32,000 nucleotides of DNA from NCBI GenBank assembly GCA_030606485.1, contig JAUWGH010000009.1, forward strand, positions 60,001-92,000, in the 5' to 3' direction. Position 1 is the first letter of the stretch, and each line of letters opens with the position of its first letter. Of this stretch, positions 14,957 to 28,297 are shown piece by piece. The position numbers were made by a program, and so were the translations under genes. This stretch comes from Promethearchaeota archaeon (lineage in GTDB: Archaea; Asgardarchaeota; Lokiarchaeia; Sigyniarchaeales; SOKP01). The notes below the pieces were generated by a model, which saw only the letters and a program-made list of their open reading frames with translations, was not told where the DNA came from and made no database searches.

Positions 14957-15026
14957 CTTTTTTTATATTTAATCTCAAATTATAAATAAAATTCCTTTTG
15001 TAAATTTAATTTTTGAGAAAATTATA

Positions 15027-16073
15027 ATGACACTCATAAAAGCAGGAATAATTGGAGCTGGAGTTGCAGGGGGTTGGCATGCATTATCCTTAAAAAAAAT
15101 TCCTGAAAAAGTGCAATTAGCCTTTATTTGTGATATTGATGAAAAAAAGGGAAAACGTTTAAAAAGAACAAATAAAGAAGCTAATATTTTAACAGATTAT
15201 AAGGAATTACTAGCGCGTGATGATATTGATACCGTTCACATCTGTTTACCCCATTTTTTACATGCAGAAGTAACAGTTGAGGCTGCAAAATATGGAAAAC
15301 ATATCTTATGCGAAAAACCAATCGCAAATACGTTGGAAGAGTGTGATAAAATGATCGAAGCAACTAAAAAAGCTGGAGTTAAATTAATGATTGCCGAAAA
15401 TCAAAGATTCTTACCAGCACTAATAAAAATAAAAGAAATTATTGGAAAGGGGACAATAGGAGATATTAAACTTGTTCGAACTTATGAGGGAGGTTCTGAA
15501 GTCGCCAGTATGTCTGACCCTAATTCTTGGAAATGTAAATGGATTGAAGGTGGTGGGGGTGCGTGGATGGATAGTGGAGTTCACAGGATTGCAGTGCTTA
15601 ATTATTTAATAGGTGATATTAAAAGTATTAGTGGTCACGCAGAAAAATTGTTATCACAATGTGAAGGTAAGGCAGATGATAATTGCGTTATGAATGTCCA
15701 GTTTGAAAGTGGAGCATTAGGCGAGATCGCAATTAGTTTCACGGTTGCAAGTGATTGGAATTGCAGTTTAGAGCTATATGGAACAAAGGGAACAATTTTG
15801 GAAAATCATAATTGGGAAAAACCAATAAAACTATATTCAACATTACCGGGACCAAATAGATGTGAATGGGTTGAACCTGAAGTATTTCATGAACCTTATC
15901 CTGGCTATTATCGAATTTCATTTCTTGAAGAAATAAAACATTTCTATGATTGCGTAATAAATAATAAAGAACCTGAAATGAGTGGTGAAGATGGTAAAAA
16001 AGCATTGGAGATTGTTTTATTAGGTTATGAATCTGCAAAATCTGGTAAACGAATTTATAGAAAAAATAAATAA
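15027..16073 (+). CDS. Gfo/Idh/MocA family NAD(P)-dependent oxidoreductase
   Basis: GIIGAGVAG Rossmann motif, HILCEKP, GGGAWMDSGVH. Confidence 0.9.
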   Translation: MTLIKAGIIGAGVAGGWHALSLKKIPEKVQLAFICDIDEKKGKRLKRTNKEANILTDYKELLARDDIDTVHICLPHFLHAEVTVEAAKYGKHILCEKPIANTLEECDKMIEATKKAGVKLMIAENQRFLPALIKIKEIIGKGTIGDIKLVRTYEGGSEVASMSDPNSWKCKWIEGGGGAWMDSGVHRIAVLNYLIGDIKSISGHAEKLLSQCEGKADDNCVMNVQFESGALGEIAISFTVASDWNCSLELYGTKGTILENHNWEKPIKLYSTLPGPNRCEWVEPEVFHEPYPGYYRISFLEEIKHFYDCVINNKEPEMSGEDGKKALEIVLLGYESAKSGKRIYRKNK

Positions 16074-16446
16074 AAAACATAAAAATAATAAAACTTAATC
16101 AACATTTAAAGGTGATTTTGATGGCTCCCACTGAAAAAATTAAAAATGCATTGAATAATTGGGCAAAAATGTTAGAAAACACTGAAATTGTAGATGAATT
16201 TGAAGAATATAATAATACCTTGCATTTATCTTTAATGATACAGATCTAAAATTACAATTAGTTTTTGAGAATAAAAAAGCTCGAATTGAAGATGGGTTTA
16301 ATGAGAATGCTGATATGACTTTAGAAATGAGTTCTGAACTTTTTGGAGGTATTGTTAATAGAAATGTTGCCCCAATAAAGGCTTTTATGGAAGGACATCT
16401 CAAAACAAAGGGAAATATGGCTGATTTACAGAAATTAGAAATATTT
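16062..16446 (+). repeat. Direct repeat, copy 1 (upstream element plus SCP2 coding region)
   Basis: Aligns with 20440-20826: 56/60 nt identical upstream and about 59% aa identity over 109 codons (manual alignment). Confidence 0.85.
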
Positions 16447-16494
16447 AATTTTCTGCTTAAAATAATGTTCAAATCTTTACTATATTATTATTAA
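16121..16494 (+). pseudogene. Frameshifted SCP2 sterol/lipid-transfer domain paralog
   Basis: AGGTGAT RBS and ATG 16121 (MAPTEKIKNALNNWAKMLEN...). One T is missing near 16226 (CAT TT ATC versus CAA TTT ATA in the intact copy), giving a stop at 16247-16249. The shifted frame continues ...AFMEGHLKTKGNMADLQKLEIF to a stop at 16494. Confidence 0.85.
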
Positions 16495-16822
16495 TTTTTC
16501 CTGGAGATAATAGTGATATATAAGGATTTGCAAGAATCTGACTTTTTTCTTTTTTTCCTTATCCCAAATTCGTGAAGTAGATAATTTCATAAAATTGACC
16601 CGCAATTTTTAAAAGAACCACCTGAAGGAAGATATAATGATTATAGAAAAAATTTAAAATATTTTGAAAAACGAAACAAATTATTGAATAAATAGCTCAC
16701 TTGATTTCACTCTTAAATTTCTTCTAAGATTTATGAAAGTATAATCTCCAGAAAGCATTCTTGATTTAAGTCTGTTATTTTCATGTTTGGTCATTTTTGA
16801 ACTGGGAGAAGAAAAAACCTAG

Positions 16823-16854
16823 ATCGATATTTTTGTCGATATATTTATATAAAA
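16823..16854 (+). promoter_or_regulatory. TATA box with adjacent short inverted repeat upstream of the large repeat gene
   Basis: TTTATATAAAA at 16844-16854, 22 nt before ATG 16877 (leaderless spacing). ATCGA-N8-TCGAT at 16823-16840. Confidence 0.45.
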
Positions 16855-16876
16855 CATTAACAAATTAGTATATGTT

Positions 16877-19800
16877 ATGTCTACTAAAAAATTAACAGCA
16901 TCAATTTTATTATTAGTAATTGGTGGTCTTTTAATAACGAGTGGATTTGTGACAAACGATTACCTTCGTAGTGAAGTCTCTAAAGGGGTTCCTGATGCTC
17001 TTTTGGCTATTAAAGATCAAGTAGAACTTGAAATAGAAGAAACTGTTAAGATTAATGGAGTTCCTGTGGTTCTTTTGGGAATTAAAGAAGGAGCTCTCCC
17101 AGAATTTGAAGATAATGTGGAGACTGAAGCAATTCTTGAAGTTCTTAAGACAGTAAAAGGAATGGCAATTCCAGAATTTGATGATAATATCAAGACCCAA
17201 GCAATTCCTGAGGTTTTAGCTGGAATTAAAACTCAAATTATTCCAGAAATTGAAAAAATGGTCAATTTTACAGCATATCTTAATACTCTTATTGAAACTA
17301 AAACTCAATTCATTCCAGAAATTGAAAAGATGGTTAATTTTACAGCTTATCTTGAGACTTTAAACGAAACTAAAAACAAAGCATTGGAATTTTTACCTGA
17401 TATAGTCAATGGTTCAACCGCAGCAAAACTAATTAATCAAACCATAGATTTTTTATATTACTATAATTTTTCGGACTGGACTCTTGCCAAAGAACATTAC
17501 TTCAATAATTATACTATCCAAGTAAATACAACGTGTCCAGTTATGGGTGTTTCAGAATATATGCATTCTATTGTCCCAGTACTCACTAACCTCTCCTATA
17601 CGACTGCTGCTCAAGATTATTTATTATACGGAAATGCACCTTATAATTTACCAGGAATAATAACGGATACTGAATTGGGTAAGGGACTCTTAGAATTTAT
17701 GGGATACTATGCGTTAGGAGCAGCTGGAAATCTCACGATACAGGGCTTAATGACATTAGGTTACAATGCTACTTGGGATCAAATTACGTATCTAGCAGGA
17801 TATATAAACAACTATTTGTGGACAACCATAGTTCCTGCGGTGATTTGGGCTCAATACGGAATGACAACCTCTGATTTTGCAATATTTATGTTCCATGCGC
17901 AATGGGCTAATGCCACGTTTGCCGAAGCTGGACTTGACTTGAGTCTTTTTATTGAAGGATATGATGACCCCCTCTATGGATTTGAAGCGGGTATTCCGAT
18001 CAAAACTAATATTTCTTATATGACAGCTTTAGATCTCTGGGATCATATGAATTCCTCATCCTTTGTGAATGATACTGGACTTATGCTATGGGTTGGTGCA
18101 TTAGCTGGGGATCCTGCTAGTTATACTAACTTAAAAACAACTTTTGGTCTGAATGATACTCAAATGGGAATAGTGCTTTATTGGTTACATGATTGGATGA
18201 CAGATGTTGCCCCAATTCTTTTTGAGACTGAAAAAGGGATATCACTGGAGGCAGCTCCAGAAATTATATTCTATGAGCAATGGGCTAATGGTACAATTTT
18301 CGGTGAGGTTATGTTTCCACCACCAGGAATTAACTTTAATGAATTTCTTGGCCTCCCTGGTTACCTCTATGGGTTTGAAGTGGGTATTTATCCATATGGA
18401 TCTAATATTTCGCTTACGACGGCCATAGATCTCTGGAATCCGTCATACTCCTATTCACTTATCAATAATGTTGGACTTATGCTATGGCTTGGTGCATTAG
18501 CAGAATTACCCACCCCTGGTGCTAACTATACTTTCTTAAATACGACTTTTGGTTTGGGAAATGATAAAATGATGGCACTCCTTGGCTGGTTATATAATTG
18601 GACAGTCATTGTTGCACCAACTCTCTTTTATTATGAATATCTCATAACATTGGATGTTGCTCCAGAATATATGTTCTATGAACAATGGGCAAATGGTACG
18701 ATGCTTGGGGAGGAAATGTTTCTAGGCGGACTTGATTTCAGTGATTTTATTGAGGAGTTAGTTGGACCTGTCATTGGATTTGAAGTTGGACTTCCACCCA
18801 ATCCATCAAATATTTCGTTTACATCTGCTAAGGCTCTATGGAATATTTCAAATCCATATTCATTTATCAATACAATCACCGGATTTGGATCTTGGTATTT
18901 AGCAGGAGTTGAAGAAAATGCAACAATAGTGAGTTTATTAAACGTAACTTTTGGTCTGGCTTCGGGGCAAATTGAATTAATTATCGATTGGTTATTTAAA
19001 ACAGTTAAGGAAAATATTGTTCCACCATTCTTTGCACTCCCAGAGGCTTTAGGAGGAAAAGGAATGACAACAACGGTTTATGCAGAAATTTTATTATATG
19101 AACAATGGGCTAATGCAACTATTGAAGGTCAACCTCAATATCCAGATGGAATTGATCTCCCAGTTCCAGGAGGGGAAGCACTTAAAGGACTCTTTGAAGT
19201 AGGTGTTCCAACCTCCTCTGGTATTTCGCTTACGGCATGTTATGCTCTTTGGGATGATACAAATCCCTCATCATTTATAAATGATACTGGACTTCAGAAA
19301 TGGCGCGATGCAGCTACAGAATTTGACGTTTTGTTAAATTTAAGTGGAACATTTGGGCTGGATATATCCCAAATGGGATTAATGCTCAACTGGTTAGATG
19401 ATATTATTGATATTTTCGTTCCAGCTCTTTTTGCTGATCCAACATTGGGAAAAGGAATGACAATACCAGCATATGCAGAAACTCTGTTCTATGAACAATG
19501 GGCTAATGGTACGATTCTTGGTGAAAAAGAATATCCACAAGGATTGGATCTAGGTGAAGGTCTTACCGGTTTTGAAGTAGGTATTCCAACAGCATCAAAT
19601 ATTTCGCTTGCGATATGTGAACTTCTCTGGAATGAGTTAAATGTCTCAACATTTGTCAATGATACTGGAATTGGTAAATGGCTTGATGCAGCTACAAATA
19701 CTACAGTTCAAGCTGAATTACGCACAACCTTTGGTTTGAATGCAACCCAAATGAGTTTAATCCTTAATTGGCTATGGGAGAATTCATTTAAAGACGATGT

Positions 19801-20320
19801 TGTCCCAATTCTCGCAGCAGAAGAGTTAGGAATGTCCTTATCGGATTATGCAGAAGATCTATTCTTTGAACAGTGGGCTAATTGTACGATTCTTGGTGAG
19901 AAAATGTTTCCAGAAGGAATTGTACTCCCAATTGGTGATCTCACAGGAGTAGAAGTAGGTTGTCCGACAGCATCAAATATTTCGTTATCAGTTGCTGAAA
20001 TTCTTTTTGATGATACAAATCCCTCATCAATAGTTGACCCCAGTGGTCTTCAGAAATGGTATAGGGCAGCGGATTCAAACTCTAGCGAATATTCTGAATT
20101 AAAGGTAAAATTTGACTTAACAGATACTCAAATGGGAATGATAACCACGTGGTTAAATAACTTTAGAGACAGTGTTGTTCCTGTTCTTGCAAAAGAACAA
20201 ATGGGACTACCAGCAGATCCATATACACTAGGTAGTGGGTTATTCCTTGGAATGGCTATAGGAGGAGTTTGCTTAGCAGCTCTCGGTGTAGTTGTATTAT
20301 TATTATCTAGAAGAACATAA
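16877..20320 (+). CDS. Large two-TM cell-surface repeat glycoprotein (six ~130-aa QWAN repeats), function unknown
   Basis: 1147 aa with a hydrophobic helix at each end, very short basic termini (MSTKK, RRT), an acidic ectodomain and about 38 N-x-S/T sequons by manual count. Confidence 0.85.
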   Translation: MSTKKLTASILLLVIGGLLITSGFVTNDYLRSEVSKGVPDALLAIKDQVELEIEETVKINGVPVVLLGIKEGALPEFEDNVETEAILEVLKTVKGMAIPEFDDNIKTQAIPEVLAGIKTQIIPEIEKMVNFTAYLNTLIETKTQFIPEIEKMVNFTAYLETLNETKNKALEFLPDIVNGSTAAKLINQTIDFLYYYNFSDWTLAKEHYFNNYTIQVNTTCPVMGVSEYMHSIVPVLTNLSYTTAAQDYLLYGNAPYNLPGIITDTELGKGLLEFMGYYALGAAGNLTIQGLMTLGYNATWDQITYLAGYINNYLWTTIVPAVIWAQYGMTTSDFAIFMFHAQWANATFAEAGLDLSLFIEGYDDPLYGFEAGIPIKTNISYMTALDLWDHMNSSSFVNDTGLMLWVGALAGDPASYTNLKTTFGLNDTQMGIVLYWLHDWMTDVAPILFETEKGISLEAAPEIIFYEQWANGTIFGEVMFPPPGINFNEFLGLPGYLYGFEVGIYPYGSNISLTTAIDLWNPSYSYSLINNVGLMLWLGALAELPTPGANYTFLNTTFGLGNDKMMALLGWLYNWTVIVAPTLFYYEYLITLDVAPEYMFYEQWANGTMLGEEMFLGGLDFSDFIEELVGPVIGFEVGLPPNPSNISFTSAKALWNISNPYSFINTITGFGSWYLAGVEENATIVSLLNVTFGLASGQIELIIDWLFKTVKENIVPPFFALPEALGGKGMTTTVYAEILLYEQWANATIEGQPQYPDGIDLPVPGGEALKGLFEVGVPTSSGISLTACYALWDDTNPSSFINDTGLQKWRDAATEFDVLLNLSGTFGLDISQMGLMLNWLDDIIDIFVPALFADPTLGKGMTIPAYAETLFYEQWANGTILGEKEYPQGLDLGEGLTGFEVGIPTASNISLAICELLWNELNVSTFVNDTGIGKWLDAATNTTVQAELRTTFGLNATQMSLILNWLWENSFKDDVVPILAAEELGMSLSDYAEDLFFEQWANCTILGEKMFPEGIVLPIGDLTGVEVGCPTASNISLSVAEILFDDTNPSSIVDPSGLQKWYRAADSNSSEYSELKVKFDLTDTQMGMITTWLNNFRDSVVPVLAKEQMGLPADPYTLGSGLFLGMAIGGVCLAALGVVVLLLSRRT
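17012..17443 (+). repeat. Six in-frame 72-nt (24-aa) tandem repeats
   Basis: Lys at residues 46, 70, 94, 118, 142 and 166. Units at 17228 and 17300 are near-identical (KTQIIPEIEKMVNFTAYLNTLIET / KTQFIPEIEKMVNFTAYLETLNET). Confidence 0.8.
17891..20210 (+). repeat. Six in-frame 375-420 nt (125-140 aa) repeats
   Basis: QWAN codons start at 17900, 18278, 18683, 19103, 19496 and 19871. Each is followed by variants of GFEVG, SNIS, LW, W..A, TFGL and WL. Confidence 0.92.
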
Positions 20321-20365
20321 AGGAATCTACAATAACAATAATAAATAATATAAAAATTAACTTTC

Positions 20366-20375
20366 TTTTTTTTTT
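20366..20375 (+). terminator. Oligo-T terminator candidate
   Basis: T10 run 45 nt after the stop at 20320. Confidence 0.45.
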
Positions 20376-20439
20376 ATTTTGTTCCTTGACAGATTTAATT
20401 ATTTTTTGGATTTTCAACCTTTTTTTAAAAGAGAAATAT

Positions 20440-20826
20440 AAAAATAAATAAGAAAACATAAAAATAAAAAAACTTAATCAAAATTTAAAGGTGATTTTAA
20501 TGGCTACTATTGAAGAGATTAAAAATACATTGCATAATTGGGCAAAAATGTTAGAAAACCCTGAAATTGCAGATGAATTTGAAGGATACAATAAAATAAT
20601 GCAATTTATATTTCCTGACATTAATTTAAACTTACAATTGGTTTTTAAAGATAAAACTGCAAAAGTTGTAGATGGGTTTAATGATAAAGCGGAAATGAGT
20701 TTAAAAGTTAATTCGGATCTCTTTATTGGCATATCCACTGGAGATATTGATCCAATGGAAGCATTTATGAATGGCGAACTAAAACCTAAAGGAGATTTAG
20801 CTGATTTGGAAAAATTGGAAATTTTT
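20440..20826 (+). repeat. Direct repeat, copy 2 (upstream element plus SCP2 coding region)
   Basis: Partner of 16062-16446. Confidence 0.85.
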
Positions 20827-20841
20827 ATGGATATAGATTAG
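20500..20841 (+). CDS. SCP2 sterol/lipid-binding domain protein
   Basis: 113 aa with the SCP2 C-terminal signature GDIDPMEAFMNGELKPKGD. AGGTGAT at 20489-20495 places the start at ATG 20500, not GTG 20491. Confidence 0.85.
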   Translation: MATIEEIKNTLHNWAKMLENPEIADEFEGYNKIMQFIFPDINLNLQLVFKDKTAKVVDGFNDKAEMSLKVNSDLFIGISTGDIDPMEAFMNGELKPKGDLADLEKLEIFMDID

Positions 20842-20911
20842 AAGAGCTTTTCTCCTCCATATTTTTTCCCATATTAAAGCACACTTGAAAAAAGGATTAA
20901 GAAGTAAGAGA

Positions 20912-21679
20912 TTAATTAAAAAAATCTCCATGTTTTCCTTTCCCTTCTATAAATACCTGAGATCCTTTTAAGTGTTCTTCACTTGCTAAAGTTTTAAGAC
21001 CATGTTCAAATTCATTTGCTAATGCATCTTTTAAATTTAATCCAAATTGTTCATATACCGAAAATCGATCCTCTCTAAGACATGATTGTGGAAATGAAGC
21101 AATTTCTCTGGCTAATTTTTCAGCCTCCTCTCTTGACTTATCAACATCAACAACTTGATTTGCAAGACCCATCCTAAATGCCTCTTCAGCAGTAATAGGT
21201 CGTCCTGTAAGTATCATATCCAATGCATTACTTAATCCAATTAATCTTGGAAGGCGTACCGTACCACCGTCGATAAGTGGGACTCCAAACCTCCGGCAAA
21301 AAACTCCAAAAACTGCATTTTTTTCAACAATTCGCAAATCACACCATAAAGCGAGCTCTAATCCTCCAGCAACTGCATATCCAGCAACTGCAGCAATAAC
21401 GGGTTTTGATAAAACCAACCTAGTTGGTCCCATTGGGCCATCTCCTTTCTTCTCTATTCTATTTCCATTTCCCATGGCTATTGCCTTTAGATTTGCACCC
21501 GAACAAAATATCCCATTTGCACCCCAAAGAACCGCTACACGTGCATTCCCATCCTGTTCAAACTCTCGAAACGCATTTGCAAGTGAAGTAGCGCTTTTTC
21601 GATCAATTGCATTCTTAACTTCAGGATTATCAATAATTACTGTAGTTATCACTCCATCTTTTTCTACTCTTATTCCCAT
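20912..21679 (-). CDS. Crotonase/enoyl-CoA hydratase family protein
   Basis: FCSGANLK, KPVIAAVAGYAVAGGLELALWCDLR, FGVPLIDGGTVRLPRLIG, MILTGR. Confidence 0.92.
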   Translation of the reverse strand: MGIRVEKDGVITTVIIDNPEVKNAIDRKSATSLANAFREFEQDGNARVAVLWGANGIFCSGANLKAIAMGNGNRIEKKGDGPMGPTRLVLSKPVIAAVAGYAVAGGLELALWCDLRIVEKNAVFGVFCRRFGVPLIDGGTVRLPRLIGLSNALDMILTGRPITAEEAFRMGLANQVVDVDKSREEAEKLAREIASFPQSCLREDRFSVYEQFGLNLKDALANEFEHGLKTLASEEHLKGSQVFIEGKGKHGDFFN

Positions 21680-21789
21680 TTTTTGAACCTTTTTTATTAT
21701 TGAAGATTTAATTAATATATTTCATCAATTAAAAAATCTTTAACTATATTAAAAATTAAATTAATTAATATTATTAAGGAGAAATAAAA

Positions 21790-22914
21790 ATGGAACCCAT
21801 TGGATATAGTAAGAAAAAGGCTAGTGAAGCTCTTGAAAAAAACAACATTGATATTTTAATTGCTTCTACGCCAGTGAATGTTTTTTACACAACTGGAGTG
21901 CCAACGCTCCATGTTGCTCATAATCCTATTCTATATGTTTTATATAATCAGTATCCAACCTTATCCTTAGTTCGTAGAGATGGAGAGGAAAGTCTAATAA
22001 TTTGGATGGTATATAGTAGTGTAGAGAAATTTTCTTGGGTAAAAAACGTGAATGGGATTGCTTCTCCAAAGGCAGCTATGAAAGAAGTTTCAGATAAGAT
22101 AGAAGAATGGAACTTATCTAACAAAACGATTGGTCTTGAATCCCTAATGCCGAGATATCAATCTGAATTTTTACAAAAAAAATTTCCGAATGCAACATTT
22201 GTTAATGGAGATCAAGCTTTTTTAGATATGCGATTGATTAAAACAGAAGAAGAAGTAAAGCGAATAAAAAAATCTACTGAGATCTCCGAAAAGGCAATAA
22301 TGAATATGATTGATTCCATAAGAGTGGGTATAATTGACAATGAATTACTCAAAATCGCAAGGCGGACTATTATTGATGAGGGTGCAGAAGGCTGGGACCA
22401 CTTAACATTAGGTATTGGTTCATCAGATCCAGAAGCACCTGGAGTTGGAACTATAATGAACCGTGGGGATATATCAAGATTTGATATTGGAACAATTTGG
22501 AAAGGATATGTTTCAGATGTGAGTAGAGAAGCTGTAATTGGGGAAATCCCTGAAGGTGGAAAAGAAGTAATGGATCGTACGATCCAAGTGCAGGAATATT
22601 GCGTTGATAATATTAAACCTGGAATAAATATTAAGGAATTCAATACTAACGCAAAAAAATTTGCGAAATCACTAAAAAAGAGAGGTTTAACTATTATTAC
22701 AGGGCATAGTATTGGGTTAGAATGTGAGGAGGTTCATTTGTTCAGTCCTATGAAGACATTAAATATCGAATTTGAGGAAAATATGGTTCTTGATATAGAA
22801 GTTTGGCAAAATCTTACGGGTGCTGGGTTAGTTGGAATAGAGGATTGTTATAGAATTACTAGTTCTGGTTGCGAAAGACTTTCAAGTCTTGATAAAAATA
22901 TCTTTATTAAATAA
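21790..22914 (+). CDS. M24 family (aminopeptidase P/creatinase fold) metallohydrolase
   Basis: Creatinase-like N-domain, RLIKTEEE, DIG....GYVSD, GHSIGL, DIE, IED. AAGGAGA RBS. Confidence 0.85.
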   Translation: MEPIGYSKKKASEALEKNNIDILIASTPVNVFYTTGVPTLHVAHNPILYVLYNQYPTLSLVRRDGEESLIIWMVYSSVEKFSWVKNVNGIASPKAAMKEVSDKIEEWNLSNKTIGLESLMPRYQSEFLQKKFPNATFVNGDQAFLDMRLIKTEEEVKRIKKSTEISEKAIMNMIDSIRVGIIDNELLKIARRTIIDEGAEGWDHLTLGIGSSDPEAPGVGTIMNRGDISRFDIGTIWKGYVSDVSREAVIGEIPEGGKEVMDRTIQVQEYCVDNIKPGINIKEFNTNAKKFAKSLKKRGLTIITGHSIGLECEEVHLFSPMKTLNIEFEENMVLDIEVWQNLTGAGLVGIEDCYRITSSGCERLSSLDKNIFIK

Positions 22915-22929
22915 AATAGGTGATTAAAA

Positions 22930-23706
22930 ATAAGATTAAAAGATAAAATTGTAATATTAACTGGTGCAGCCTCCGGTATTGGGAGATCTACGGCAATTTT
23001 ATTAGCTAAAGAGGGAGCGATTCAGATTATTTCAGATATTAATGAAGTAGGTTTAAAAGAAACATATGAAATGATAAAAGATGGAAAAGAAAATACAATA
23101 TTTATGAAAGTGGATGTAACTAAACCCGCTGAAGTTAAAGACATGATTGATACTACCATAAAAAAATATGGAAAAATAGATATATTGATATGTAATGCTG
23201 GTGTTGTAAGAGTAGGTCCCATTGAAGACTTTCCAGATGAGGATTATGATTTATTGATTGATGTTAATCTTAAGGGTACCTATTATACATGTAAATATGC
23301 TGTTCCATATTTTAAAAATCAAAAATTTGGTTCAATTATAACCTTAGCTTCAGTTGCCGCTCATATTGGACAAGTCAATCATGCAAATTATTGCTCCACT
23401 AAAGCTGGAATTTTAGGATTCACAAGAGCTTTAGCGTTAGATTTGGCTCCTTATGGAGTTCGTGTAAATAGTGTGAGTCCAGGAGCCACCGATACTCCAA
23501 TGCTACAGGGTGATGTGGCTAAACAAGCAAGAGACAGAGGGGTTGATTATGAAGTTATAAAGAAAGAATTTGAAGAGGAGGGAGTAATAGGTAGATGGGC
23601 AGAACCCGAAGAAATTGCTGCTGGAATTCTCTTTTTAGCAACTAATGAGTCATCTTATATGACGGGAGCTGATTTACGTCTAGATGGTGGTTGGACTACG
23701 AGATAA
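22930..23706 (+). CDS. Short-chain dehydrogenase/reductase, probable ATA start
   Basis: The frame upstream of ORF-track start 23071 encodes (I)RLKDKIVILTGAASGIG, with an in-frame TGA at 22921. Also CNAG, YCSTK, NSVSPG and LDGG. AGGTGAT at 22918-22924. Confidence 0.88.
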   Translation: MRLKDKIVILTGAASGIGRSTAILLAKEGAIQIISDINEVGLKETYEMIKDGKENTIFMKVDVTKPAEVKDMIDTTIKKYGKIDILICNAGVVRVGPIEDFPDEDYDLLIDVNLKGTYYTCKYAVPYFKNQKFGSIITLASVAAHIGQVNHANYCSTKAGILGFTRALALDLAPYGVRVNSVSPGATDTPMLQGDVAKQARDRGVDYEVIKKEFEEEGVIGRWAEPEEIAAGILFLATNESSYMTGADLRLDGGWTTR

Positions 23707-23811: not shown

Positions 23812-25164
23812 TTATTCTTCTTTTTCCCAATCGAAATCAAGTTTTACAAATTTTCTGGAGTAGAAATAAGCAACAATTAATATTAAAGAACATATTGGCC
23901 CCCATATTACATGTCCTATAGAAAAGGTTGCCGTCCCAACATCTATTTTGGGTAATTCCAATAGAACCCCCATAATAAGAATACCTACTATTTGGAAGAG
24001 ATTTAGAACTATACTAGGAAAGCCTTTATAAATTCCTGCTTTTAATTCGCCCGTTGTTTTTTCGTCATCTTCAGTAATATCTGAAATGAAAACAGGAGGA
24101 AGTAAAAACCAGCCAGCCATGGCCCCAGCCAATCCTAGGATAAATAATATTCCAAATATAATGGATGAATCCATAGGTATCAAACCTAACAAAGAGAATG
24201 GAAGGATAATAATTGCTACTAGAAAAATATATAAAAGACTTCTTTTTTTTCCTAATTTGTGTACTAGCCTCCTCCATATATATAAGAAAGTTAATATCCC
24301 TATTATGAAAATAACTGATGCTATAATATTAGTCATGAAGTCAAAAATTAAAACTACTACAATGTATTGTAACATTAATGAGCCTATCATTATCCAAGCC
24401 ACACTAGCGAGACCGATCATTATGATTACTAATATATAATTCTTATTTTTTAGAATTATTTTTAAATTCTGAAATATATTAGAATCTATCTTAAAATGTG
24501 GTTCTGTAGGCATTAAAAAGGTAGCCAAATAAAATAGTACTACTGGAATAATCCCAAATATTAATACACTATATAAAAATTCTGGTGGAATAATATCTGG
24601 GTTTGTTTGGATATCATCAATACAAGCTGTTAAAACTACCATTGAAAAAATCGTAATTACTGCCGTTCCAATCATACCAAAAATTTGTTGATATTGAGAC
24701 GATTTGGGTCTATCATCAACTCTAAATTGTTCAGTCATCCAAGATCCATATGGTGTAGTAACACCATAACATAGATTAAAAATTTGATACCATACTAATA
24801 ACCACATAAATAATATGCTGGCATCAGTGATATCTAATACTAAACCTGGCAATAGTAAAAAAAAGAAGGATACTCCAAGTATTGGACTCAAAATAATTAA
24901 ATATGGTTTTCTTCTTCCCAATCGTGTATATTTCGCATCACTAATCCATCCAAAAAAGAATTGAGAGGCAGCAATAGTAAGTTTTCCTAATGCCATAGCA
25001 ACAGTTGTGATAAATGGAGGTAAACCATAAGCCAAACTATAAAGGGTAAATAAAGCCAAATCTGCAAATGTCATCAGAACAGATGTTCCGAATTTTGGCA
25101 TCCCAAAGAAGAGAAATTTACTTGTTTTACTTTTACTCCATAGCTTAATTTCTTTTTCACTCAT
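23812..25164 (-). CDS. MFS transporter, GPH (MelB-like) family, paralog A
   Basis: About 12 hydrophobic helices, GWISDAKYTRLGRRKPY loop motif, D..EDDE..TGE.KAG.Y motif. Confidence 0.88.
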   Translation of the reverse strand: MSEKEIKLWSKSKTSKFLFFGMPKFGTSVLMTFADLALFTLYSLAYGLPPFITTVAMALGKLTIAASQFFFGWISDAKYTRLGRRKPYLIILSPILGVSFFFLLLPGLVLDITDASILFMWLLVWYQIFNLCYGVTTPYGSWMTEQFRVDDRPKSSQYQQIFGMIGTAVITIFSMVVLTACIDDIQTNPDIIPPEFLYSVLIFGIIPVVLFYLATFLMPTEPHFKIDSNIFQNLKIILKNKNYILVIIMIGLASVAWIMIGSLMLQYIVVVLIFDFMTNIIASVIFIIGILTFLYIWRRLVHKLGKKRSLLYIFLVAIIILPFSLLGLIPMDSSIIFGILFILGLAGAMAGWFLLPPVFISDITEDDEKTTGELKAGIYKGFPSIVLNLFQIVGILIMGVLLELPKIDVGTATFSIGHVIWGPICSLILIVAYFYSRKFVKLDFDWEKEE

Positions 25165-25277
25165 ATCAATTTCACATATTTATTAATAAATTTTTTAAGT
25201 AAATTGTAAATAAAATTCTTCCTCATGATTTATAAAGTTTTATTCAAATAGCAACTAAAAAAATTTTAACTTTATTT

Positions 25278-26630
25278 TTATTGGTTTTTTTCCCACACAA
25301 AATCAAGTTGTATAAATTTTCTAATGTACCAATATGTAATAACAAATATTAACGAACATAATGGTCCCCATAAAACTAAACCTAATGAAAAGGTTAAAGG
25401 TCCTACGACAATATCAGGTAATTCTAATATAATCCCCATAATAAACAAACCCAATGCTTGAAAAAGATTTAAAGTTATACTTGGAAAACCAGTATATATG
25501 CCTGCTTTTAATTCCCCTGTTTTTACCTCATCATCTTCAGCAATATCTGCATACATAATTGCAGGGAATAAAGCCCAGCCGCTCAAACACCCTGCTAATC
25601 CAAGGATAAAAAGTATTCCAAATATAAGGGATGAATCCATCGGAATTAATCCTATTAAAGTTAATGGGAGAATAAGAAATCCTAACAGAAAAATACATAA
25701 AAGACTTTGTTTTTTTCCTAATTTTTGTATCACTCTTCTCCATATATATAAGAAACCTAACATCCCAAAAATCATAATACCTGCTGCAATAATATAATCC
25801 ATATCATTAAATTGTAAAACTTCCACGATATATATTAACATTATTCCAGTTATTGTTATAGTAGCTATACCAGAGATACCTTGCATAATGGCTACTAATA
25901 AAAAATTCTTATTTTTTAGAATTGTCTTTAAATTCTGAATTATATTTGATTCTATCTTAAAATGTGGTTCCTTAGCCATTAAAAGGCTAGCTAAATAAAA
26001 TAAAACTACTGGAAATATCCCAAATATTATCACACTATATAAAAATTCTGGCGGAATATTTTCTGGGTTTGTTTGTATTTTTTCAAACACTTCTGTTAAA
26101 ATTACCATTGAAAAAGCTGTAATTACTGCGTATCCAACCATACCAAAAAATTGCTCGTATTGAGACGCTCTGGGTCGGACCTCAACTCTGAATTGTTCAG
26201 CCATCCAAGCTCCATATGGTGAAGTAACGCCATAACATATGTTAAAAATTTGATACCAAACTAATAACCAAATAAATAATACGTCAAGATTAGTGATATC
26301 TAATATTAATCCAGGTAGAAGTAAAAATATGAAAGATAATCCTAGTATTGGACTCAGAATGATTAAATATGGTTTTCTTCTCCCCCATCGTGTATATTTT
26401 GCATCACTAACCCATCCAAAAAAAAATTGAGAGGTAGCGATAGTAAGTTTTCCTAATCCTAAGGCAATACCAACAAGAAATGGAGTTATTTGATAACCTA
26501 AAACATAAAGAGCGAATAAAGCAAAATCAGCAAATCCCATGATAATAGATGTTCCAAATTTTGGCATCCCAAAAGTTACTAATTTACTCGTTTTACTCTT
26601 GGCCCTAGTAATAATTTCTTCTTGATTCAA
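25278..26630 (-). CDS. MFS transporter, GPH family, paralog B
   Basis: Roughly two-thirds identical to paralog A by eye. Aligning the upstream ATATGTGA-N7 with paralog A places the start at TTG 26630 rather than 26654. Confidence 0.88.
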   Translation of the reverse strand: MNQEEIITRAKSKTSKLVTFGMPKFGTSIIMGFADFALFALYVLGYQITPFLVGIALGLGKLTIATSQFFFGWVSDAKYTRWGRRKPYLIILSPILGLSFIFLLLPGLILDITNLDVLFIWLLVWYQIFNICYGVTSPYGAWMAEQFRVEVRPRASQYEQFFGMVGYAVITAFSMVILTEVFEKIQTNPENIPPEFLYSVIIFGIFPVVLFYLASLLMAKEPHFKIESNIIQNLKTILKNKNFLLVAIMQGISGIATITITGIMLIYIVEVLQFNDMDYIIAAGIMIFGMLGFLYIWRRVIQKLGKKQSLLCIFLLGFLILPLTLIGLIPMDSSLIFGILFILGLAGCLSGWALFPAIMYADIAEDDEVKTGELKAGIYTGFPSITLNLFQALGLFIMGIILELPDIVVGPLTFSLGLVLWGPLCSLIFVITYWYIRKFIQLDFVWEKNQ

Positions 26631-26757
26631 AATGTTCTCACATATTTTTTGCAAAAATTTTTTAAAATAAATTGTAAAATAAATAATCTAATAAAAATTC
26701 TGTAAATGAATATAAGAAATTTTTGATTAAATATTAACTATCTTTTCTGTTTATTTT

Positions 26758-26768
26758 AAAAAAAAAAA
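26758..26768 (-). terminator. Oligo-T terminator candidate (T11 on minus strand)
   Basis: A11 run 20 nt beyond the stop at 26789. Confidence 0.4.
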
Positions 26769-26788
26769 TAAAATTTTAGATTAATGAT

Positions 26789-28165
26789 TTATTGAATTTT
26801 TTCTAATTCAATTAATCGTTTTTCATGAAGAACCTTTAGTTTTTCTTGTTGTTCGCAGAAGTTTTTGTAGTTTATTGGGAAGAATTTAAAAATTATTAAA
26901 GCACATAATCCTCCAAGAACAGGAACTAGTGATATTAATAATGTTAAACCGAATAAAGCAGAGGGTGATTGAGTTTCTGATCCCGATTCAAAGCCAGTAA
27001 GTAGTTGAACAGTTGTTAGAGTTATAGCCGCGAGCACAAGAGATAACCTTACTATAAATCCAAAAACTCCGGTATACGTTCCTTCACGTCTTTTTCCAGT
27101 TTTCAATTCATCATAATCTATCGCTGCGCTGACTGCTGGTTCAGTCATCAACATTCCACCTACTCCAAAACCTGGTATGATTGTTATAAGTATTAGCATG
27201 GTAAAATCATTTACAAGAAAAATAGGCCAAATTGTTGCCGTAAATATTCCCATTGATAGGAGTAATCCATATTTTGGTCCTTTTTTTGCATACATCCATC
27301 TCCAAAATAGCACACTAATAAGAATTCCTAATGCGATTCCCAAGAGACCAACACCAATCAATCCTACTTCCACTTCCAGAACAAATAAAGCATATAGAGG
27401 AAGAACCATCATGGTTAAGCCAAATATAGTGTCAAGAATTGCATATGTCAATGTAATAATTAAGAATGGCTTATTCGTAAGAGTCTCTTTAAATGCAGGA
27501 ATGTAAGATAAAGGTTTATCTATTTGATACTCTTTTCTTTCTTTAATTCCAAGAAGTGACAAATACATAAATATTGGTATTGTTAATCCAAAAATTATTC
27601 CAGCCATTGTCCAACTAGTAGCTGAAACAATCATAGGAGTTATTATAACACTAACCATACCTGAAAGAAATGCAAAGGTATCTTTCATAGCTACCATTGT
27701 TGCCCTTTCTTCTTCTTCTTCATACATTTCCGTGTATAATGCAGACCAAGCAGTCATTGCCAATGTAAAACCAAGATCGAATAGAAATAGCATTAGTAAA
27801 GCATGAAAAAATATAGCTGTCTGATCTGTCCATGGAACCCACCATAAAAGTATAAATCCAATAGTAAATGGAATAGTTCCAACGACAATATATGGAACTC
27901 GACGACCCCATTTAGTCACCTTTTTATCCATTAAATATCCAACTAAAGGATCATTAATTGCATTCCAGACACCATAAATTACCCATAAAACACCAAATAA
28001 AAAAGGATCAAGTCCAAGTGTTACTTCATAAAACAATACAATATAAGAACCTATTATTTGATAAGGAAGTGATGAAGGAATAGCTCCCAGAGAATACAGA
28101 AGATGTCCACGTAAGGAATGCACTTTATCTTTTACTTTTTTTTCTTTAATCTTTTTTTCATTCAT
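26789..28165 (-). CDS. MFS transporter, GPH family, divergent third member
   Basis: WNAINDPLVGYLMD, KWGRRVPY, IDYDELKTGKRREGTY. ATG 28165 is preferred over TTG 28174. Confidence 0.88.
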   Translation of the reverse strand: MNEKKIKEKKVKDKVHSLRGHLLYSLGAIPSSLPYQIIGSYIVLFYEVTLGLDPFLFGVLWVIYGVWNAINDPLVGYLMDKKVTKWGRRVPYIVVGTIPFTIGFILLWWVPWTDQTAIFFHALLMLFLFDLGFTLAMTAWSALYTEMYEEEEERATMVAMKDTFAFLSGMVSVIITPMIVSATSWTMAGIIFGLTIPIFMYLSLLGIKERKEYQIDKPLSYIPAFKETLTNKPFLIITLTYAILDTIFGLTMMVLPLYALFVLEVEVGLIGVGLLGIALGILISVLFWRWMYAKKGPKYGLLLSMGIFTATIWPIFLVNDFTMLILITIIPGFGVGGMLMTEPAVSAAIDYDELKTGKRREGTYTGVFGFIVRLSLVLAAITLTTVQLLTGFESGSETQSPSALFGLTLLISLVPVLGGLCALIIFKFFPINYKNFCEQQEKLKVLHEKRLIELEKIQ

Positions 28166-28297
28166 AGTAATCAAATTATATTCTTTCTCTAAGTATAAAA
28201 AGTTTTTTCAAATCAGATTAGGCAATATCTAAGTTTTTCTGGTTTTTTAAGGATTATTCTTTTGAGCTTAGCTTCTAAAAGTTATTTCAAAATCTAT

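Follow-up and report, generated by a model that had tools for sequence, protein, structure and literature searches.

The subject of this analysis is a gene encoding a 1147-aa protein (hereinafter the large gene), located in a 32,000-nt stretch of contig JAUWGH010000009.1 from a Promethearchaeota archaeon (hereinafter the window, to which all coordinates refer). The window is AT-rich, with a GC content of about 31%, and the host is an Asgard archaeon with a 100% complete genome of 3.75 Mb. Profile comparisons indicate, with little room for doubt, that the N-terminal membrane anchor of this protein and the tandem repeat of its ectodomain, the QWAN module, are homologous to parts of CD36/LIMP-2 family proteins, the class B scavenger receptors (SR-B), and that the barrel of these receptors is missing, so that the protein adds a new architecture to a known receptor family. 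On balance, we favor the view that it is an apex-only relative of SR-B, a glycan-coated surface protein with a binding or coat function that conducts no lipid. A first-pass annotation of this DNA had read the locus as a lipid-uptake system; its observations are confirmed in part and its interpretation stands in part, in that the kinship with CD36 is real but lipid uptake is not supported.

Hydrophobic 19-mers are found in the 1147-aa protein only within residues 2-28 and 1117-1146, with tails of about 5 (MSTKK) and 4 (SRRT) residues outside the anchors and K/R residues flanking both ends. This is the hairpin topology of the CD36 family (two terminal helices, short tails and a large ectodomain), and it bears out the initial description of a transmembrane helix at each end with tiny tails. 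The ectodomain was also rightly described as rich in predicted N-glycosylation sites: the protein contains 38 N-X-S/T sequons, all within residues 130-1068, i.e. between the anchors, compared to 8.8 +/- 2.7 expected and a maximum of 20 in 2000 shuffles. The GxxxGxxxG motif that had been noticed in the C-terminal helix is present as well (GLFLGMAIG, residues 1121-1129). However, the double motif is kept in only 3 of 84 family members (a single GxxxG in 50), and its reading as a conserved zipper was dropped.

The region between the anchors consists of a long stalk followed by a divergent repeat (rep0) and six clear repeats of about 125-140 aa each (Table 1). Each of the six canonical modules carries the motif series FYEQWAN(G/A)T, GFEVG, SNISL, LW, NDTG, TFGL..QM and WL, and 258 of the family's 283 repeats keep the QWAN(G/A)T sequon. 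The AlphaFold2 (AF2) model of a di-module (residues 863-1112) is all-alpha, with 5-6 helices per module (predicted local distance difference test, pLDDT, 95.2; predicted template modeling score, pTM, 0.80). The model of the N-terminal 330 residues (m5c73b09a8ab6) consists of the anchor helix, continuous long helices over residues 30-170 at pLDDT 45-65, and a confidently predicted rep0 (pLDDT >90 over residues 170-330).

Pfam contains no family that matches the 1147-aa protein at E<=0.01. The CD36 profile, PF01130, matches none of 34 family members even at E<=10, and the sub-threshold matches to other profiles at this cut-off (DUF3185 at the N-terminal helix, LodA_C and others) are regarded as noise. 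There is also no PF01130 match in the host's own genome or its genus, and no sequence of a solved structure matches the protein at E<=1. Structure searches started with the models give a similar picture. In the PDB, Foldseek gets no better than E 2.2 with the di-module and E 1.0 with the N-terminal model, with no LIMP-2 or CD36 chains among the matches listed; the wide VIA-align search with the di-module reaches Z 4.3 at best, with small three-helix motifs; and in the ESM Atlas the di-module reaches a TM score of no more than 0.32. S-layer and adhesin folds are not among the structural matches of the models, although this does not rule out membership of such a family. Finally, once the parts of the protein are assigned, none of what is left over is long enough to form a beta-barrel. 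As judged from its sequence, the 1147-aa protein is without the CD36 barrel and hence without the lipid tunnel, which in the known members is formed by the barrel.

The connection to the CD36 family is provided by Asgard proteins in which the same module accompanies a barrel. PF01130 scores above its curated cut-off in 28 of 400 Asgard genomes, and in most of these the two halves of the profile are separated by an insert of about 240 to >850 aa. In P0087 (1628 aa, Hodarchaeales), the PF01130 domain (E 2.1e-89) is split by an insert of about 1150 aa that is colinear with residues 11-490 of the 1147-aa protein (BLASTP 4e-37); the stalk is colinear with P0087 residues 132-300, and the stalk, rep0 and rep1 together correspond to the start of the insert. 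A hidden Markov model (HMM) of the repeat, built from the 1147-aa protein, matches all 20 extracted Asgard CD36 open reading frames (ORFs), the matched region lying inside the gap that separates the halves or at its edge, and an hhalign comparison of the family with Asgard CD36 gives a probability of 98.2 (E 3.7e-14). An HMM of the family's first 52 columns matches 10 of 12 Asgard CD36 N-termini (E 1.6e-11 to 6e-5) and, more weakly, the N-termini of further CD36-family proteins including one from Luapelamoeba (E 0.002), and no other ORF among the 3166 of the host's genome scores below E 0.25. The stretch shared with CD36 comprises the anchor and the next ~15 residues. The Asgard CD36 profile itself retrieves LIMP-2 (4q4f, E 3.6e-66) and CD36 (5lgd, E 1.5e-56) from the PDB, and the Asgard insert falls between the two stretches matched to these structures. 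We read this position as that of the LIMP-2 apex helices, consistent with the location of eukaryotic apex expansions at helices alpha4 and following (PMC10715195).

The likeness to CD36, originally drawn from topology, thus acquires a basis in homology for the N-terminal anchor and the apex module, but does not extend to the barrel; likewise, comparison with CD36/LIMP-2 families, protists included, returns profile matches (the above hhalign result and the amoebozoan CD36 proteins discussed below) but no LIMP-2 or CD36 chain among the Foldseek matches listed for the models. The Asgard CD36 proteins resemble the 1147-aa protein in the two anchors, the N-terminal segment, the QWAN module and the heavy sequon load. 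They carry one to about seven modules on a barrel, whereas the 1147-aa protein has seven modules and neither barrel half. Such CD36 forms, of about 780-860 aa, exist within the host's own family, P0087 being a far longer representative. A literature search on CD36 and Asgard archaea returned nothing relevant, and no description of Asgard CD36 proteins was found.

The family and its eukaryotic relatives

The homologues of the 1147-aa protein number 87, all from Asgard metagenome-assembled genomes, and share one architecture: an N-terminal anchor with the consensus MSxKSKLIIxIVLLxVGxGLxPTG...GVPDALL, a helical region, 3-8 repeats, an LPxEPYxLG motif, a glycine-rich helix and a basic tail. In the 1147-aa protein and about 85 relatives, the modules constitute the whole ectodomain. 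The module is present in 95 of 400 Asgard genomes, and its recognition in CD36 proteins gives this family, which has no Pfam entry, an evolutionary address. Within the host's family, 82 of 134 genomes have the module and 52 lack it. The barrel-less proteins are nearly confined to one Asgard order (Lokiarchaeia-type), where several paralogues per genome are found; the genome analyzed here has a single copy. Outside that order, all six module-bearing genomes (G042, G043, G050, G051, G056 and G079) also possess a CD36 gene, with the module matches in these six counted per genome. Barrel loss from a CD36-type gene is the favored, if unproven, origin in view of this distribution, of the N-terminal segment of CD36 type that the protein retains, and of its colinearity with the insert of P0087.

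The repeat number differs between close relatives, and the N-terminal third of the protein is replaced or poorly covered in other populations. In particular, positions 17279-17870 of the window are poorly covered by contigs of other cold-seep and sediment studies, and in a contig of run X4, positions 17412-17858 are replaced by 451 other letters, so that the segment looks hypervariable between populations. Another variant, P0085 (1198 aa, encoded on a 6.4-kb Logan contig), consists of a GH92 alpha-mannosidase and a CARDB domain followed by two QWAN modules and the C-terminal anchor of the family, which implies that module and anchor can carry an extracellular enzyme. The host's own genome encodes an AglB/STT3 oligosaccharyltransferase; at 1295 aa, the open frame that contains the match (G000:C5:259206-260402) is unusually long. 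The presence of this enzyme, the conservation of the QWAN(G/A)T sequon, the variation in repeat number, the variable N-terminal third and the GH92 fusion point to a cell-surface protein under diversification. A further observation concerns two loci of related genomes, L083 (G207:C27, 2298-6613) and L084 (G212:C246, 1616-5921), in which a CD36-family gene (814 and 851 aa, respectively, minus strand) lies back to back with a barrel-less, two-module paralogue of 558-560 aa on the plus strand.

The class B scavenger receptors (CD36, SR-BI, LIMP-2 and Dictyostelium Lmp) are treated as a eukaryotic family in a study that describes the apex expansions as lineage-specific and independently arisen and does not mention archaea (PMC10715195). 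An HMM for which the barrel-less Asgard family alone supplied the repeats (283 in number) matches 85 of 142 CD36 representatives. These representatives, many of which are 740-820 aa long, were collected by exhaustive HMMER searching with P0125 as the seed; this eukaryotic mRNA contig carries an AATAAA signal along with a poly-A tail. The recognition of both the amoebozoan apex and the Asgard CD36 inserts by profiles of this family suggests that the apex module is a transferable, autonomous unit. The matches include Dictyostelium firmibasis KAK5576469.1 (E 1.1e-20), a Cavostelium protein (2e-16) and a Balamuthia mandrillaris 'CD36' (KAL6063214.1, E 1.5e-12), as well as proteins of Endostelium and Luapelamoeba, and the amoebozoan alignments keep the motif series FYxQWANxT, GVPSNIxL, L(W/F), N..S, G..W..A and F.L...Q...IL.W. 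The amoebozoan long-form CD36 proteins (Dictyostelium Lmp-type, Balamuthia) have the same module and the same two-anchor glycoprotein topology; however, they carry one or two modules on a complete CD36 barrel, whereas the archaeal protein has modules alone. LmpA-C act in phagocytosis, according to a passage of the same study that cites Sattler et al. 2018 (PMC10715195).

Human LIMP-2/SCARB2, CD36 and SR-BI (4q4f, 4f7b, 5lgd; PF01130) share with the predicted form of the 1147-aa protein the hairpin with both ends inside, the short tails and the glycosylated ectodomain, and their helical membrane-distal ligand-sensing region can be likened to the module array. Their apex is a short three-helix bundle, whereas the archaeal protein has the QWAN array and neither barrel nor tunnel, and they show no detectable sequence or fold match to the 1147-aa protein itself. 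It is conceivable, if unlikely at present, that the QWAN array is the free-standing archaeal form of the SR-B ligand-sensing apex, an Asgard receptor or adhesin for partner cells or particles, and that the apex of the eukaryotic long-form CD36 proteins (amoebal Lmp-type) derives from the same Asgard module. If this is true, part of the eukaryotic machinery for particle and lipid recognition is older than eukaryotes.

The SCP2 copies and the gene neighborhood

The large gene is flanked by two SCP2 copies that form a direct repeat (16062-16447 and 20440-20827; 77.6% identity over 388 nt), as had been recognized in the first-pass annotation. The duplication takes in an AT-rich upstream region with the ribosome-binding site, which in the upstream copy extends up to position 16120. 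The further claim that two SCP2 genes bracket the large gene holds for the downstream copy, which is intact, but not for the upstream one. The latter starts with an ATG at 16121 and, compared with the downstream copy, has lost 1 nt after 16223 (the single gap in the blastn alignment); the first of the resulting frames stops at 16249, the second spans 16216-16494, and no ORF of at least 60 aa covers this copy. Its C-terminal part is still recognized by the Pfam SCP2 profile (E 1.1e-12, 48.7 bits). The Logan assembly of the likely source run agrees with the stretch without differences, and no indel is listed at the frameshift site in two runs of other studies that have depth in that bin. The upstream SCP2 copy is a frameshifted pseudogene.

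In the two closest relatives (L002 and L005; 83% and 77% identity in the protein encoded by the large gene), the gene order is GNAT - SCP2 relic - large gene - 67-aa ORF - crotonase. Upstream of the large gene, these genomes keep no more of SCP2 than a 3' remnant. The downstream SCP2 is absent, its site being filled by the ORF for the 67-aa hydrophobic peptide. DNA colinearity shows that window positions 14999-16321, i.e. the oxidoreductase gene and the 5' half of SCP2, are missing from both relatives. The relic is orthologous to the upstream copy (92.8% identity vs 69% to the downstream copy), and DNA similarity ends 127 nt past the stop of the large gene, where the intact SCP2 sits in the present genome. 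A fourth member of the genus, G146, has the same arrangement as the window, but its downstream SCP2 contains three stop codons. The intact SCP2 of G145-G147 is located elsewhere, directly before an M24 peptidase gene. At L087-L089, in three relatives, the two genes are contiguous, with 74-76% DNA identity to window positions 20434-20843 and 21746-22939; in the window, the inverted crotonase gene lies between SCP2 and M24, pointing to a local rearrangement. An intact SCP2 adjacent to the large gene is peculiar to this genome; within the genus it is otherwise truncated, stop-ridden or absent. More generally, segments 14999-16321, 20448-20901 and 21721-22927 are present here and are absent or replaced in the closest relatives, and the remaining region is 85-92% identical, so that an indel hot spot surrounds the surface-protein gene.

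By profile score, the downstream SCP2 (46.5 bits vs the PF02036 cut-off of 21.3, with the domain intact) and the crotonase (156.4 bits, above the cut-off and full-length over profile positions 5-243 of 251) are ordinary members of their families. The crotonase gene reported to follow the SCP2 gene is indeed there but does not follow it as in an operon, because it lies on the opposite strand and the two genes are convergent.

A survey of 54 loci with homologues of the large gene (858 kb in total) detects SCP2 at two of them, both in close kin and only as relics, and crotonase at one, the orthologous locus, its adjacency to the large gene being kept only within the genus. With 12 crotonase paralogues in the 3.75-Mb genome, about 2.7 crotonase genes are expected by chance in 54 loci. 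The recurrent neighbors are genes for NDP-sugar epimerase/dehydratase, ABC ATPases, Ile-tRNA synthetase, APS kinase and an AMP-binding enzyme. No conserved lipid-gene neighborhood is found among the 54 loci, contrary to the expected recurrent co-location with SCP2 and beta-oxidation genes. SCP2 and crotonase are probably neighbors of the large gene through local rearrangement, with no functional partnership. Since the lack of a recurrent lipid-gene association among the homologues had been set beforehand as the refuting result, the lipid-operon reading fails, and a tempting but unsupported annotation is removed for this locus. Two other neighbors of family members, in other Asgard genomes, can be mentioned: an IFT52 GIFT domain (E 7.7e-12) is present in the product of L059:12846-14216 (minus strand), and the product of L033:4837-6444 (plus strand) gives weak, sub-threshold UQ_con (E 7.5e-8) and BRE matches.

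Proposed role and competing explanations

The following model is compatible with these observations. The 1147-aa protein would be a hairpin surface protein with both short ends in the cytoplasm and a glycine-rich helix anchoring each end, and its ectodomain would combine the long helical stalk with seven tandem all-alpha QWAN modules and many N-glycans at the predicted sites, one of which is conserved in each module. The N-terminal anchor segment and the apex helical module would have been kept from SR-B relatives, with the barrel lost or never present. The two anchors would hold a glycan-shielded helical array above the membrane, and this array might, like the SR-B apex, bind ligands from outside, particles or partner cells, or it might join the cell coat; no lipid would be conducted into the membrane. 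Surface location, glycosylation and the binding or coat role are all predicted from sequence features, and the last of these, binding or coat function without lipid conduction, is proposed tentatively when taken by itself, at somewhat less than even confidence. The link to CD36 offers a testable handle on how Asgard archaea recognize their surroundings, which is relevant to syntrophy and eukaryogenesis.

Several points weigh against this proposal. Homology to CD36 C-termini is not detected with an HMM of the C-terminal anchor, and the C-terminal anchor motif is not detectably related to Asgard CD36 proteins. The direction of change may have been the opposite one, with the module captured by CD36. 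The modules may contain a hydrophobic groove or cavity, and given that the apex of CD36-family proteins adjoins the entrance of the lipid tunnel (PMC10715195), lipid or lipoprotein binding by the module itself is possible by analogy. Finally, this genome does retain one intact SCP2 directly 3' of the large gene.

One competing explanation is the lipid-uptake route of the first-pass annotation, in which a surface lipid receptor supplies fatty acids or sterols to SCP2 as the cytosolic carrier, which in turn feeds beta-oxidation through the crotonase, all within one functional locus. The apex module and anchor make the protein kin to a family of lipid receptors, intact SCP2 and crotonase genes lie within 1.4 kb 3' of the large gene, and the crotonase adjacency is maintained within the genus. 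We nevertheless consider this route highly improbable. The barrel and its tunnel are absent, one SCP2 copy is frameshifted, and the other is unstable, being absent in L002/L005 and broken in G146, with the relatives' intact SCP2 beside an M24 peptidase gene elsewhere. The homologue loci yield two SCP2 relics and fewer crotonase genes than chance predicts, and their recurrent neighbors are sugar-nucleotide, transporter and housekeeping genes. In addition, SCP2 and crotonase converge, the large gene comes with a TATA-like element and an oligo-T run of its own, and cytoplasmic tails of 4-5 residues provide almost nothing for a carrier to dock to. An explanation that concerns the two-anchor topology is even harder to sustain: the C-terminal motif, helix and basic tail could be a sorting signal of the PGF-/PEP-CTERM type, cleaved by an archaeosortase to leave a lipid-anchored protein with a single anchor. 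In its favor, the family conserves this tripartite layout (LPxEPYxLG, hydrophobic helix, R/K cluster). However, the 100% complete genome contains no PF09721 exosortase/archaeosortase (the Methanocaldococcus jannaschii control is positive), and the C-terminal HMM matches no other ORF among 3166, whereas sorting signals normally mark many proteins; the chance that this is correct appears minimal.

The other two explanations concern the function. A purely structural envelope protein, a glycocalyx or S-layer substitute covering the cell with no specific ligand, would fit the high sequon density with one conserved sequon per module, the rigid, high-confidence di-module model, the wide occurrence of the family, whose paralogues number several per genome in one Asgard order, and the recurrence of NDP-sugar epimerase/dehydratase and APS kinase genes near homologues. 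Against this, fold searches match no S-layer-like fold or lattice-forming domain, the gene is present as a single copy in this genome and missing from 52 of the 134 genomes in the host's taxonomic family, the ligand-sensing apex is where CD36 proteins have the homologous module, and strain-variable repeat number and N-terminal third suit recognition better than scaffolding, so that a purely structural role appears unlikely, if still worth considering. Less probable again, and rather doubtful, is a stalk or scaffold that displays or organizes other surface proteins or enzymes and binds no ligand itself. In P0085, two modules and the same C-terminal anchor do stand behind the GH92 mannosidase and CARDB domains, and in CD36 proteins the modules extend another domain; but in the 1147-aa protein and its ~85 relatives, where the modules are the entire ectodomain, there is nothing to display, and the conserved surface motifs in each module suggest a function of its own.

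Layout of the locus

The features of the locus are listed in Table 1. A TATA-like element ahead of the large gene suggests that it has its own promoter and a near-leaderless mRNA, and the ten-T run beyond its stop is likely to be its archaeal terminator; judging by these two elements only, the gene is most likely a monocistronic unit. In two metatranscriptome runs of the source study, next to none of the sequence words of the stretch are present.

Table 1. Features of the large gene and its surroundings in the window
Feature	Coordinates	Strand	Evidence
GFO/IDH/MocA-type oxidoreductase gene	15027..16073	+	Pfam PF01408/PF22725, E ~1e-25
Upstream SCP2 copy, pseudogene	16062..16494	+	Stop-to-stop frames; Pfam on C-terminal part; blastn vs downstream copy
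TATA-like AT-rich element, ~30 nt 5' of the ATG of the large gene	16840..16854	+	Sequence inspection
Gene for the 1147-aa two-anchor glycoprotein, probable apex-only CD36/SR-B relative	16877..20320	+	
N-terminal transmembrane anchor, residues 5-28	16889..16960	+	N-terminal HMM
Long helical stalk with ~24-aa short repeats, residues 29-195	16961..17461	+	AF2 model
Divergent first module (rep0), residues 196-330	17462..17866	+	Alignment to other repeats; AF2
Six canonical QWAN modules, residues 331-1112 (331-456, 457-591, 592-731, 732-862, 863-987, 988-1112)	17867..20212	+	Repeat alignment
C-terminal motif (LPxxPYxLG), glycine-rich transmembrane helix and basic tail	20183..20317	+	Conserved across the family
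Ten-T run, ~45 nt 3' of the stop of the large gene	20366..20375	+	Sequence inspection
Intact SCP2 gene, 113 aa, ATG at 20500 (20500-20841), with duplicated upstream region	20440..20841	+	Pfam PF02036, E 4.8e-12
Enoyl-CoA hydratase/isomerase (crotonase) gene	20912..21679	-	Pfam PF00378, E 1.1e-45
M24 peptidase gene	21790..22914	+	Pfam PF00557/PF01321

Two observations concern the DNA beyond the M24 peptidase gene. An SDR gene at 23071 was suspected to be truncated; this was ruled out, the gene being complete from an upstream start at 22930. Further on, positions 23812-28174 (minus strand) contain three tandem genes for MFS_2-type transporters of 450-461 aa, two of which show 74-77% DNA identity to each other's counterparts in the relative L005.

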